Below are positions 1 through 5,591 of a stretch of 5,591 bases of DNA, piece after piece (positions within the stretch are counted from its first letter, which is position 1; the number at the start of each line of letters is the position of its first letter). The notes under the pieces were generated by a model that worked only from the letters and a program-made list of their open reading frames with translations, was not told where the DNA came from and did no database searches. The position numbers and the translations under genes were made by a program. The stretch comes from a virus (taxonomy: Duplodnaviria; Heunggongvirae; Uroviricota; Caudoviricetes), in IMG/VR virus record IMGVR_UViG_2675903394_000001, positions 1 to 5,591 of that record. The stretch is one strand, 5' to 3'.

Positions 1-3410
<3,410 letters not shown>

Positions 3411-3439
<29 letters not shown>

Positions 3440-3917
3440 CCGCAAATTCCTTCATTTTTTCAGCAGATTCAACGCATTTATTAGCTCCCTTCGCAACAAG
3501 CTCTTTCAGATAAGCCAATTGTCTGCCTGTCAACTCAGGGAATTTTCTTTGCATCGAAAGCGGAATACTGTCCAGAACAGATGCCAGTTCTCCGGATAAC
3601 CGGGACAGTGCAAAAACAGAGAAAGCGGTATCAATCACTTTATGCTCTGCAACCTGGTTTTTTAACCGCTGAGCAATAGCCTGTTCTTCCGTCAGATTAA
3701 CCCTGGCCTGAAGTAGCCTTTCCTCAAGGTCATTTTCACCATCTGAAGATTTCTGGTTTTGCTGACGTCGCTCGCGATCTATCTCCAGTACAGTTTTAAC
3801 GTCATAGAAAACCTCTCTCCCCCGGCGCTCAACAGGAGGGACACCCCATTTATCAAATGCCTGTACTGAGATACCGATGGAGGAGGCCATGTCGCTTTTA
3901 TTCAATAAAAAGGCCAC
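3411..3917 (-). CDS. Nu1: Terminase small subunit, Nu1 family but strongly diverged from lambda Nu1
   Basis: The track ORF 3411..3941 (TTG start) translates to ...LNKSDMASSIGISVQAFDKWGVPPVERRGREVFYD...TAFSVFALSRLSGELASVLDSIPLSMQRKFPEL.... This aligns with lambda Nu1 (NKKQLADIFGASIRTIQNWQEQGMPV...TAFCTFVLSRIAGEIASILDGLPLSVQRRFPEL) at roughly 35-40% identity by eye. Position is immediately downstream of cos and the 3' end overlaps the gpA start, as in lambda. Start is uncertain: I favour GTG at 3917-3915, which has GGAGGA 4 nt upstream; alternatives are TTG 3905, ATG 3890 (which would truncate helix 1 of the winged HTH) and the track's TTG 3941. Confidence 0.75.
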
Positions 3918-3947
3918 AGCTCCTCCATAAACCACCGGCAAAAAAGC

Positions 3948-3959
3948 AATACAACAACC
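3948..3959 (+). repeat. cosB repeat copy 3 (R1-like), aatacaacaacc
   Basis: 12-bp motif about 30-40 bp upstream of the candidate small-terminase start codons. Confidence 0.5.
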
Positions 3960-4016
3960 CCGTTTTTTGTAAAACCCTCTGATTTTACATGCTTTTTCGT
4001 ATAAGAAAGCTCATCA

Positions 4017-4028
4017 GGTTGTTGTATT
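4017..4028 (-). repeat. cosB repeat copy 2 (R2-like, inverted), ggttgttgtatt on the plus strand
   Basis: Exact reverse complement of aatacaacaacc (3948-3959); inverted relative to the two flanking copies, like lambda R2. Confidence 0.5.
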
Positions 4029-4072
4029 TGTTTTTCTTTCTTATTACTTATCAAGTAGATATATCAAACGAT

Positions 4073-4084
4073 AAAACAACAACC
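4073..4084 (+). repeat. cosB repeat copy 1 (R3-like), aaaacaacaacc
   Basis: 12-bp motif aWacaacaacc, about 39-50 bp from the cohesive end; 11/12 identical to the copy at 3948-3959. Confidence 0.5.
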
Positions 4085-4110
4085 ACCACCTCAAAAAAAC
4101 TCATAAATAG

Positions 4111-4140
4111 CGAAAACCCGCGAGGTCGCCGCCCCGTAGC
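4111..4140 (-). other. cosN terminase nicking site; 12-nt cohesive end GGGCGGCGACCT on the minus strand = plus 4123-4134
   Basis: Reverse complement of 4099-4140 is GCTACGGGGCGGCGACCTCGCGGGTTTTCGCTATTTATGAGT, which contains the lambda cohesive-end sequence GGGCGGCGACCT and the lambda left-end continuation CGCGGGTTTTCGCTATTTATGA (recognised from memory). Confidence 0.9.
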
Positions 4141-4170
4141 CTGCCGGATCGCCGGAAAGGACCCACAAAA
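4141..4170 (-). other. Right-end flank of cosN, expected to contain cosQ
   Basis: Reverse complement TTTTGTGGGTCCTTTCCGGCGATCCGGCAG closely resembles the lambda right-end terminal sequence (...GGGTCCTTTCCGGTGATCCGACAGGTTACG) as I recall it. I cannot place the exact cosQ bases. Confidence 0.35.
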
Positions 4171-4342
4171 ATGATAATAATTTCATGTACATAATGTTCA
4201 TCACAACGATGTTGTGTACGCCATCAAACCACGACAAACAGTTAATTATGCAGCAGATATCGTATTAATTGATCCGCATCAAGTTAACGTAAAAGCAACT
4301 TCAGACAATACAAATCAGCAACACTGAATATGGGGCAACCTT

Positions 4343-4537
4343 ATGTCATCGAAGAACAGAACCCGAAGAACAACAACCCGCAACATCCGATTTCCAAACC
4401 AGATGATTGAACAAATTAATATTGCTCTTGACCAGAAAGGTTCAGGGAATTTTTCAGCGTGGGTCATTGAATCCTGCCGACGGAGACTAACGTCAGAAAA
4501 GAGAGCATATACATCAATCAAAAGTGATGAAGAATAA
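4343..4537 (+). CDS. Small ribbon-helix-helix (CopG/Arc/MetJ-like) putative DNA-binding protein, 64 aa
   Basis: ATG at 4343 with a GGGG stretch 7 nt upstream, TAA stop at 4535-4537. The protein MSSKNRTRRTTTRNIRFPNQMIEQINIALDQKGSGNFSAWVIESCRRRLTSEKRAYTSIKSDEE has a basic N-terminal arm, a predicted beta strand (RNIRFPNQM) and two helices (IEQINIALDQKG; NFSAWVIESCRRRL), typical of RHH folds. I recall an almost identical ORF in the lambda right-end region carried on cosmid vectors, differing only by conservative substitutions. Confidence 0.6.
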   Translation: MSSKNRTRRTTTRNIRFPNQMIEQINIALDQKGSGNFSAWVIESCRRRLTSEKRAYTSIKSDEE

Positions 4538-4797
4538 ACATCCCGGTTTCTTCCACCATCGCACCGGAAAAGCGACTATGAGGGTAAACCTGCGTCCGTC
4601 AGCGCAGTAAAACCCGGTGTGCATCGTTTTTGATTATTTCCACACACTCACGCAGAAGGAATTCCCCGTCGGGCTACGGTCATGGTTAATGCGGGAATAC
4701 GGCGACGATACAGCGCATGATGTGTCAGGGTTGAATACCTTTATCCGTTAAAAGGGATATCAGTTAAGTTATCCCGTGTAGGGTATAAGCCATTATC

Positions 4798-4819
4798 AAG
4801 CCCACCAGTAGATGGGCTT
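4798..4819 (-). terminator. Hairpin 2 nt past the stop of the 85-aa gene; weak intrinsic-terminator candidate
   Basis: Perfect 7-bp stem aagccca (4798-4804) / tgggctt (4813-4819) with an 8-nt loop. No proper U-tract follows on either strand (ttt on plus; GATAATGG on minus), so function is uncertain, and late read-through toward cos would be expected. Confidence 0.25.
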
Positions 4820-4827
4820 TGTAATGG

Positions 4828-5085
4828 CTACTTCGCTTTTGCTTCCGCTCGCTTACGCCGGCGCTCTTCTTTCCTCTCGGCTTTTGCCATGTCCATGAAT
4901 GCCTGCATGATCGAGTTCCGCATCATGTAGCTAACAAAGTGATGATTGACACAGCCGTTGAGGCGCAACTGCTCGCCAAACTCATCCACCGAGGCCAATG
5001 CTTCCATCATGCCCTTCTCGCCTTTCATGAACTCTGAGAAGTCGCGCCCCGCTCTGGAGGCGCATTCAATGACACGATCACTCAT
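4828..5085 (-). CDS. Hypothetical 85-aa protein with a Lys/Arg-rich C-terminal tail, translationally coupled to the upstream KilA-N gene
   Basis: Only long ORF in this interval. The ATG at 5085-5083 overlaps the upstream TGA (ATGA), stop is TAG at 4830-4828. Protein MSDRVIECASRAGRDFSEFMKGEKGMMEALASVDEFGEQLRLNGCVNHHFVSYMMRNSIMQAFMDMAKAERKEERRRKRAEAKAK. I do not recognise the family. Confidence 0.55.
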   Translation of the reverse strand: MSDRVIECASRAGRDFSEFMKGEKGMMEALASVDEFGEQLRLNGCVNHHFVSYMMRNSIMQAFMDMAKAERKEERRRKRAEAKAK

Positions 5086-5591
5086 CCCGGAAGCCCGGGG
5101 ATCGTTATCTGCAACTGGTTAGCCAGGGAGTTAATCTCAGCGACCAACACTGGCTTCGTATAGCGCCATGCCGCCAGCCCTTGTCCGCAGAAGCTCGCCA
5201 TGTCTTTCTTCTGGTCAAACTCATGACATTTCATGTTGAGCTGCGCACTTAAGCTGTTGCGATGCTGAAGTTCTCCGGTGAAGTAGTCATCGAGGACTTT
5301 ATAGGCCGCGTACTTGAACCCGGGGTTTAACCAAGCCGCATAATCGTAAGCAACAAACTTCCCGCCATATGTTCCACCATGTACACCGCGCTCAGTAAAA
5401 ACCACAGATTCGTGGTTTTTCTCCAGCTCAGCTAAGAACTCTTTGGTCTGCTTGTTTCGCAGGTAGTGGTAAGGCGATTCAGATTCACTTTTACCACTGG
5501 CTTTCCACATGTCAGTGAGGCAGATCATTCCTGATTCATCAACACTGAAGTGGTCAACAAAAACTGGCCACCGAGTTAGAGTTTTTCCAGT
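5082..5591 (-). CDS. KilA-N (APSES-like) domain protein, 5'-partial: the reading frame stays open to the right edge of the window
   Basis: Track ORF 5082..5528 begins at an internal ATG, but the 21 codons upstream (TGKTLTRWPVFVDHFSVDESG) have no stop. The region ...FSVDESGMICLTDMWKASGKSESESPYHYLRNKQTKEFLAELEK...GGTYGGKFVAYDYAAWLNPGFKYAAYKVLDDYF fits the KilA-N pattern as I remember it (N.T..cKaaGK...WLR...T.E....L ... GG..GT.....A..fA.WL.P.F). Same strand as the late genes. Confidence 0.6.
   Translation of the reverse strand, partial: TGKTLTRWPVFVDHFSVDESGMICLTDMWKASGKSESESPYHYLRNKQTKEFLAELEKNHESVVFTERGVHGGTYGGKFVAYDYAAWLNPGFKYAAYKVLDDYFTGELQHRNSLSAQLNMKCHEFDQKKDMASFCGQGLAAWRYTKPVLVAEINSLANQLQITIPGLPG

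Follow-up and report, generated by a model that had tools for sequence, protein, structure and literature searches.

What does a small gene do that adjoins the cohesive-end site of a lambdoid prophage and is read against its late operon? This question is raised by a stretch of 5,591 nucleotides from a virus of the Caudoviricetes (IMG/VR record IMGVR_UViG_2675903394_000001, positions 1 to 5,591), hereafter termed the window, which constitutes a segment of a lambdoid prophage in reverse orientation. Its plus strand contains an open reading frame (ORF) of 64 codons at 4343-4537, which is antisense to the late operon because the genes of the terminase subunits Nu1 and A are located on the minus strand. 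The ATG of the ORF is found 209 nucleotides past a 12-mer that we take to be the lambda cohesive end cosN and that is matched exactly in the window, in the prophages DLP12 and Qin and in other lambda-type loci. Coordinates, strands and distance are all as described in the original prediction, which had been made from the letters of the window. We find the ORF to be a genuine gene that encodes a member of the YlcI/YnfO (DUF3950) family. As judged from structural models, this protein very probably adopts a ribbon-helix-helix (RHH) fold, and we cautiously favour it to be a stand-alone, sequence-specific regulator of the prophage that would neither be an antitoxin nor a part of the packaging machine. 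In its essentials, the interpretation given in the original prediction is thereby supported. It had overlooked that the protein belongs to a named family and is already present in NCBI, and that a DUF1398 gene follows on the same strand in relatives, an arrangement of which the region 4538-4827 is a relic. With the family already catalogued and the exact protein already annotated, the observation is correct and not new.

The assignment to the family is based on matches of the 64-residue protein to the Pfam family DUF3950 (PF13132; E-value 9.5e-19, 67.4 bits with a cut-off of 25), to the NCBIfam model NF041551 (YlcI_YnfO_N, 'YlcI/YnfO family protein'; 34.3 bits with a cut-off of 30) and to PHROG 949, whose function is not assigned (E-value 2.7e-34). 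PF13132 is equally matched by all 26 aligned relatives. DUF3950 groups small proteins of about 45-80 residues with a conserved N-F-S motif, and such a motif is found at N36-F37-S38, the phenylalanine and the serine being invariant in the family and the asparagine conserved to at least 90%. NCBI lists the identical sequence, found on 14 contigs, under the name 'YlcI/YnfO family protein [Escherichia albertii]', and this species is the probable host. In E. coli K-12, YlcI (b4589, in DLP12) shares 95.3% identity over 64 residues and YnfO (b4533, in Qin) 91% over the first 55 residues, and the synteny with both genes extends to the same slot between cos or the Nu1 homolog and the accessory genes. 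The mention in the original prediction of a conserved but poorly characterized counterpart in the right end of lambda proved accurate: a 95.3% identical ORF is located at 48112-48303 on the minus strand of lambda, which carries no annotation in NC_001416.1 and J02459.1 and is named either hypothetical or YlcI/YnfO in other lambda-like records.

The pattern of substitutions is that of a protein under purifying selection, as is evident from the ratio of non-synonymous to synonymous rates (dN/dS) that had been suggested as a check. Compared to lambda, 12 synonymous and 3 non-synonymous changes result in a dN/dS of 0.06 in the sense frame and of 0.31 in the antisense frame, with identities of 97%, 100% and 78% at the first, second and third codon positions, respectively. 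Every one of 44 different homologous sequences, with identities as low as about 33%, retains an open sense frame; their sources are Escherichia, Rouxiella, Pectobacterium, Brenneria, Xenorhabdus, Klebsiella, Enterobacter, Serratia, Pantoea, Tatumella, Gilliamella and a Pasteurella satellite. Conversely, a 68-codon antisense ORF (4315-4521 of the window), for which no Pfam match was obtained, is broken by stop codons in about 18 of the 44. The differences to lambda are unevenly distributed: the first 46 codons (4343-4480) hold nearly all synonymous differences and the last 18 (4481-4534) a single difference, which suggests either a recombination junction inside the gene or an added constraint at its 3' end.

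The family is small, with matches at E-values up to 1e-3 in 133 of 1.84 billion cluster representatives, many of which are noisy copies of lambda, and it is essentially limited to Enterobacterales and their mobile elements. Near-identical DNA of the lambda right end is also encountered in assemblies of Streptomyces, Cohnella, Pedobacter, Staphylococcus and other unrelated organisms, and in many 3.5-kb ENA contigs. These copies of about 95% identity in unrelated bacteria are almost certainly lambda control DNA, which inflates the apparent host range, and we have set them and the ENA contigs aside as contamination or noisy reads.

Turning to the fold, an AlphaFold2 model of the monomer (mean predicted local distance difference test score, pLDDT, of 72.6) displays an extended N-terminus followed by a helix comprising residues 19-32, a short turn and a second helix comprising residues 37-62. 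The model resembles solved RHH domains: its Foldseek matches, all with E-values of at least 0.4, are dominated by Arc, NikR, MazE9, TacA, ParD and MatP, and the antitoxins VapB12 and Rv0298 are further RHH proteins among the best structural matches. In a profile-profile comparison with hhalign, the family aligns to the Arc family over the strand and helix A only (P = 0.0014, probability 17%), in a register that places N14-I15-R16-F17-P18 of YlcI on N11-L12-R13-W14-P15 of Arc. This region of Arc is the DNA-reading strand, where outward-facing polar residues alternate with buried hydrophobic ones. The equivalent comparisons with single sequences are weak (P of 0.007 for Arc, 0.12 for Mnt and 0.016 for a TacA-like protein). 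Residues that are invariant across the family include R16 and F17 in the predicted strand, I25 in helix A, and F37, S38, W40, V41 and C45. The claim of an RHH fold, which we consider very likely to be correct, is based on the predicted structure together with a single hhalign score of modest significance because the Pfam scans of the family retrieved DUF3950 and no RHH family. The RHH signature proposed in the original prediction thus finds moderate agreement between AlphaFold2, Foldseek and hhalign, and the Pfam search that it had recommended places the protein in the DUF3950 family.

The genomic surroundings portray the gene as an independently exchanged cassette, as judged from where homology ends in different lambdoid phages. 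With respect to lambda, homology extends from cos through the gene and stops about 16 nucleotides past its stop codon, whereas the junction to Qin-type prophages falls inside the part encoding the C-terminal tail and that to Stx phages at the ATG itself. In lambdoid phages, the gene is always located at the border between the lysis/accessory region and the packaging region, on the strand opposite to late transcription, irrespective of the type of packaging module. The genes ylcI and ynfO are found about 390 nucleotides from the Nu1 homologs nohD in DLP12 and nohA in Qin, across cos, while in Stx phages the gene is separated by 41 nucleotides from a divergent HNH endonuclease gene heading an HNH-TerS-TerL packaging module. 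The genes that follow are variable. In Qin-type prophages, the DUF1398 gene ydfO starts 57 nucleotides after ynfO on the same strand, as is also the case at loci L035-L039 and L041. In DLP12, ylcI is placed between ybcW and nohD, and the order in lambda and DLP12 comprises a convergent gene (ybcW or lambdap79), a DUF1398 gene (ybcV or lambdap78; Pfam E-value 2.2e-46) and bor, so that the next gene on the same strand is again of the DUF1398 type, past the inserted convergent ybcW. Downstream of the gene in the window and in Stx phages, both the ybcW-type and the DUF1398 genes are absent.

The strongest indirect support for DNA binding comes from distant members of the family (33-45% identity) that are found in satellites of the P4-like and phage-inducible chromosomal island (PICI) type. 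These elements typically contain genes for an integrase, an AlpA-like regulator, an Icd-like protein and a primase, in some cases with an AntA-like gene. No other gene shares the strand of the YlcI-like gene, which diverges from the operon of the Icd-like gene and the primase, as exemplified by an E. coli island (L091), where PGAP annotates an Icd-like gene at 6548-6751 (-) and a YlcI/YnfO gene at 6959-7150 (+). The divergent gap of about 190 nucleotides (3811-4000 at L058) contains two to four GTG-N6-CAC palindromes at conserved positions. Up to four such sites occur per 220 nucleotides compared to an expectation of 0.01-0.06, with 2 of the 17 loci being devoid of any. Two palindromes of 12-13 base pairs, GGTG-N6-CAC(C), are spaced by 23 base pairs, the second abutting GTCAA, which on the leftward strand reads as a TTGAC -35 hexamer (TTGACG in most loci) followed by a T-rich stretch and a TATAGT or TATGGT -10 element, whereas a third is found about 30 nucleotides before the ATG. 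The centres of these palindromes co-vary with the residues preceding the I-R-F motif of the encoded protein: a sequence ending in TTKG is paired with CACATA, CACAAA or TATATA, one ending in xYKG with TTTAAA and one ending in xKK(G/H/N) with GC-rich centres. The same rule held in two loci that were examined later, L091 (TYKG with TTTAAA) and L088 (TTKG with CACAAA). In a pair of close relatives, L058 and L063, a single exchanged block covers the operators together with about 20 initial codons; the rest of the gene hardly differs, nor does its intrinsic terminator. Such a pattern would be expected for a repressor along with its operators and supports, short of proof, a contact to DNA by the N-terminal arm and the strand. 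The satellite genes overlap with long antisense ORFs, which we have rejected as real genes since they lack a Pfam domain, differ between close relatives by frame-breaking indels of +1 and -13, cross a promoter region and the intrinsic terminator and are superseded by YlcI/YnfO in PGAP calls; those annotated in the Pasteurella phage Pmp7 and in vB_KppS-Ant are probably mis-calls that hide the small gene.

Homologs also exist outside phages and satellites, as single genes near cydDC or dsbD in chromosomes of Pantoea and Tatumella. At L044, L055, L067 and L081 (around position 4000), in Rouxiella, Pantoea and Tatumella, the YlcI-like gene is present in a single copy without obvious mobile-element genes nearby, its neighbours being housekeeping genes encoding a putative cytochrome bd oxidase pair, CydDC, DsbD and a TonB-dependent receptor. 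A cosN-like sequence was sought near the divergent homologs and found at none of these loci; the proximity to cos therefore characterizes lambda-type phages rather than the family.

With respect to expression, the 121 nucleotides before the ATG are 89% identical to lambda. This exceeds the 78% identity at third codon positions, pointing to some constraint on the leader. It contains a possible -10 element, GACAAT, at the position relative to the ATG that is also taken by the -10 element of the satellite homologs, small palindromes and ATCAAYTWA-like repeats, and neither the candidate -10 element nor the palindromes are significant. ATCAAYTWA was rejected as a lambda-type operator, as it is not enriched in either the window (6 matches compared to 3.9 expected) or the lambda right end (9 compared to 5.2), and a 13-nucleotide inverted repeat in the upstream region of lambda is degraded in the window. 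The adjoining segment 4171-4221 is the most variable part of the spacer between cos and the gene, with 64% identity to lambda and 9 gap positions. It harbours a perfect palindrome, CACAAC-GAT-GTTGTG (4202-4216), that lambda does not contain, and a promoter-like sequence on the minus strand, TGAACA-18-TATCAT (4200 to 4171), that is aimed at cos and Nu1. The original prediction had required a promoter for the gene in the AT-rich region upstream of it. No promoter on the plus strand and no terminator were called in a scan of 3900-5100. Indirect evidence of expression comes from the ortholog in K-12: a 2025 study describes ybcW-ylcI as a convergent, transcriptionally overlapping 'excludon' in at least half of E. 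coli RNA-seq samples, and the DLP12 ortholog is therefore transcribed in a cryptic prophage. A paper derived from lambda ribosome profiling (Liu et al. 2013) does not mention this region. By analogy to this cryptic prophage, the gene of the window would be expressed in the lysogen.

Together, these features suggest how YlcI might work. The N-I-R-F strands of two chains would come together as a two-stranded ribbon reading the major groove of DNA, with the Arg/Thr-rich N-terminal arm aiding the contact. Carried as a self-contained, horizontally exchanged cassette at the junction between the lysis/accessory region and the packaging region, the gene would be transcribed from a weak promoter of its own, opposite to the late operon, so that the protein could be made in a lysogen, where it would serve as a regulator of transcription, probably as a repressor or autoregulator. 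DNA binding and a regulatory role of the family are here proposed by analogy to the satellite homologs.

Several observations weigh against this reading. With respect to the fold, the monomer model is of moderate confidence and its strand is not formed, RHH models of Pfam match none of the 26 family members at E-values up to 10 (including PF03869 of Arc), the best score of an RHH-type model being that of HicB_lk_antitox for one member only (E-value 0.08), and searches of the PDB with sequence and profile did not retrieve a solved homolog. Concerning regulation, a scan for the sigma-70 consensus that included 4171-4340 did not identify a promoter on the plus strand, the repeats upstream of the lambda-type gene that were considered as operators do not exceed chance, and Stx phages encoding the same N-terminal arm contain unrelated DNA in place of the upstream region. 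Since these phages retain the protein and not the upstream DNA, autoregulation is doubtful in the lambdoid subfamily. An alternative reading of the palindromes in satellites would be that of iterons for replication to which the primase binds, with the iterons at ori and crr of P4 as a precedent. Finally, a search of the full-text literature for ylcI, ynfO and DUF3950 did not reveal a functional study. We nevertheless consider a stand-alone RHH regulator the moderately probable function of the protein.

An extension of this proposal would be that the YlcI family constitutes an unrecognised class of operator-binding RHH proteins in helper phages and satellites, where the satellite copy represses the Icd-primase operon via GTG-N6-CAC and the copy next to cos in lambdoid prophages, including lambda, acts in trans, its targets being such elements or host genes and not cos. 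Although we rate this conjunction of claims as rather unlikely, it would define the cos-side YlcI as a factor of helper-satellite cross-talk or immunity.

An alternative role in packaging, in which YlcI binds near cos or another packaging site to modulate the specificity of the terminase or the termination of packaging, would account for the location of the gene next to packaging modules of two types, the Nu1/A module of the window, lambda, DLP12 and Qin and the HNH-TerS-TerL module of Stx phages. It would also agree with five clusters of fusion proteins (123-142 residues, 48-86% identical to the query P0203) in which an RHH-like domain at the N-terminus is fused to the N-terminal DNA-binding part of a Terminase_2 small subunit. 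DUF3950 is matched in four of the five, the fifth, P0316, having a more generic RHH-like domain, and the fusion gene is found in mini-satellites composed of an integrase, the fusion gene and a primase, in the slot that is otherwise held by the YlcI-like gene. At L087, such a mini-satellite is embedded in a prophage between TerS and the tail genes. However, the strand opposite to the late operon would preclude co-expression with the terminase, and homologs in P4-like and PICI islands and at chromosomal sites in Pantoea and Tatumella are without a nearby cosN, a family-wide context that argues against a cos-specific role. Moreover, reconstitution of lambda packaging has been achieved with terminase, IHF and proheads, and cos function maps to cosQ-cosN-cosB, for which this ORF is not known to be required. 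The published satellite factor Rpp, which redirects TerS of lambda and which we had considered as a relative of YlcI in view of the TerS fusions, was rejected as such since its winged-helix fold is unrelated. We thus regard a packaging-associated factor as unlikely.

A third explanation views YlcI as an orphan RHH antitoxin, or as the regulator of a two-gene module with a DUF1398 protein (YdfO, YbcV or lambdap78), whose partner was lost in the window. In Qin-type prophages, lambda and DLP12, a DUF1398 gene comes next on the same strand, the region downstream of the gene in the window is a relic of this arrangement, and the antitoxins TacA, VapB12, Rv0298, MazE9 and ParD are among the best structural matches. 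Conversely, the partner is absent in the window, in Stx phages, in satellites and at chromosomal sites, and the gene persists under purifying selection without it. An adjacent toxin in the same operon is not found, the next genes being convergent in the window, and the same holds for Stx phages and satellites; the lack of a toxin partner noted in the original prediction was correct, with no ORF of at least 50 residues in 4538-4827. The approximately 15 residues after helix B are short for a toxin-neutralising domain. The literature on DUF1398, ybcV and ydfO yielded expression observations only: ybcV shows a PdhR-dependent expression of its own, and overexpression of YdfO is cited as protective and not as toxic. 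For these reasons, we judge this explanation very unlikely. The last possibility, that the ORF is incidental and that its conservation reflects a function of cos-flanking DNA or an antisense RNA against the late transcript, could draw on the missing annotation in the lambda reference records, the 89% conservation of the flanking non-coding DNA and the antisense location, but is effectively refuted by the concentration of changes at third positions and the low dN/dS and further opposed by the scores of hidden Markov models above curated cut-offs and the maintenance of a protein family with always open frame at 33-58% identity in unrelated contexts.

The findings are of interest in several respects. 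The reference records of lambda omit a conserved gene under purifying selection about 200 base pairs from cos, and the question arises as to the role, in a lambdoid prophage, of a small DNA-binding protein whose gene is read opposite to late transcription. The two copies in E. coli K-12, ylcI and ynfO, make the predicted DNA-binding role cheap to test. The wider lead is the repressor-like arrangement of homologs in Gram-negative satellites, whose confirmation would outweigh the gene of the window; the PICI papers that were searched do not mention a repressor of these islands.

Features of the window and of related loci that are relevant for the assignment are compiled in Table 1, where the heptamer near cosN is a putative cosQ. 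Among the neighbouring genes, Nu1 is of an allele that shares only about 37% identity with the lambda/NohA type (as detected by tblastn), whereas terminase A is about 95% identical to relatives carrying a NohA-type Nu1, and a mosaic junction is therefore located between or within the terminase genes. The specificity for cosB probably differs as well. Downstream of the gene, the non-coding stretch holds only a 44-residue ORF with a GTG start and one of 36 residues. Its part 4608-4718 shares about 80% identity with the DNA that immediately precedes the bor promoter in lambda and HK629, and the stretch is therefore a recombination relic of a lambda-type right end in an ancestor. No match was obtained in an Rfam search of the window, and the folding z-score of the stretch is only -1.75. 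A strong hairpin at its end may be a terminator, although the terminator scan did not call it. The trio of a DUF3950 protein, a hypothetical protein and a KilA-N protein is also found in Stx phages.

Table 1. Coordinates of features in the window and in related loci (locus number before the colon).
Feature	Position	Strand	Remarks
ylcI/ynfO-family gene	4343-4537	+	64 residues plus stop, ATG start; ORF list, family matches, purifying selection
Predicted protein layout	residues 1-64		Basic N-terminal arm 1-13; strand N14-I15-R16-F17; helix A 19-32; turn G33-N36; helix B from F37 (NFSAW motif); from AlphaFold2 model, fold matches and Arc alignment
cosN cohesive-end 12-mer	4123-4134		AGGTCGCCGCCC, reverse complement of GGGCGGCGACCT
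cosQ-like heptamer AGGACCC	4158-4164		Reverse complement of lambda GGGTCCT; kept in alignment with lambda right end
Conserved non-coding leader/promoter region	4222-4342	+	Promoter and operator roles putative
ATCAAYTWA-like repeats	4265-4273; 4278-4286	-; +	In leader
Palindrome TTGAT-N4-ATCAA	4269-4282		Small, by eye
Possible -10 element GACAAT	4304-4309	+	By eye
Palindrome TCAG-N5-CTGA	4315-4327		Small, by eye
Shine-Dalgarno-like GGGG	4332-4335	+	7 nucleotides before ATG; also in lambda, DLP12 and Qin; putative role
Portal B (partial)		-	
W	1311-1517	-	
Terminase A	1514-3445	-	
Terminase small subunit Nu1	3411-3941	-	Pfam Phage_Nu1, E-value 1.8e-21
Non-coding stretch after gene	4538-4827		290 nucleotides; DUF1398 gene, bor and ybcW absent
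Strong hairpin GCCATTATCAAGCCCA...TGGGCTTTGTAATGGC	4787-4829		In minimum-free-energy and centroid structures; between convergent ylcI unit and orf85/KilA-N operon
orf85 (85 residues)	4828-5085	-	PHROG 875; convergent with ylcI
KilA-N/ORF11CD3 protein	5082-5528	-	Convergent with ylcI
Satellite YlcI-like genes	L046, L051, L054, L056, L058-L060, L063, L066, L068, L072, L073, L076, L083, L088, L090, L091		
Antisense ORF, Pasteurella phage Pmp7	L083:2583-3257	-	Annotated 'transcriptional repressor'
Antisense ORF, vB_KppS-Ant	L090:6997-7971	-	Hypothetical protein
Antisense ORF	L058:3625-4572	-	Crosses promoter region and intrinsic terminator
Fusion proteins P0203, P0314-P0317	L087:8001-8429; L088:4714-5103		

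Among known systems, YlcI and YnfO of K-12 are closest to the protein of the window, with which they share family, position, orientation and the invariant I-R-F and NFSAW motifs. The arrangement differs from DLP12 and lambda by the absence of ybcW, the DUF1398 gene and bor, and from Qin by the absence of ydfO, whereas the succession of the gene, a relic and the convergent orf85/KilA-N pair is like that in Stx phages. Arc and Mnt of phage P22 are small phage proteins with the order of strand, helix and helix that is predicted for YlcI, and with an N-x-R-x-P strand motif in register (NIRFP in YlcI, NLRWP in Arc and NFRMP in Mnt), and by analogy a similar action as dimer on palindromic operators is likely for YlcI. 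Conversely, YlcI falls outside the Arc family as defined by PF03869, has a longer basic N-terminal arm, an invariant cysteine in helix B and the NFSAW turn, and its locus does not show an equivalent of the control of the ant gene in immI by Arc and Mnt. RHH antitoxins such as TacA (DUF1778), VapB, ParD and MazE9 are accompanied by an adjacent toxin and carry a C-terminal toxin-binding extension, and YlcI exhibits neither. Finally, ylcI resembles bor in being an autonomous unit in the late region, on the opposite strand and with mosaic junctions on both sides. The lambda 'moron' genes bor and lom are expressed in lysogens, and whereas their products are outer-membrane proteins, that of ylcI is a predicted DNA-binding protein.

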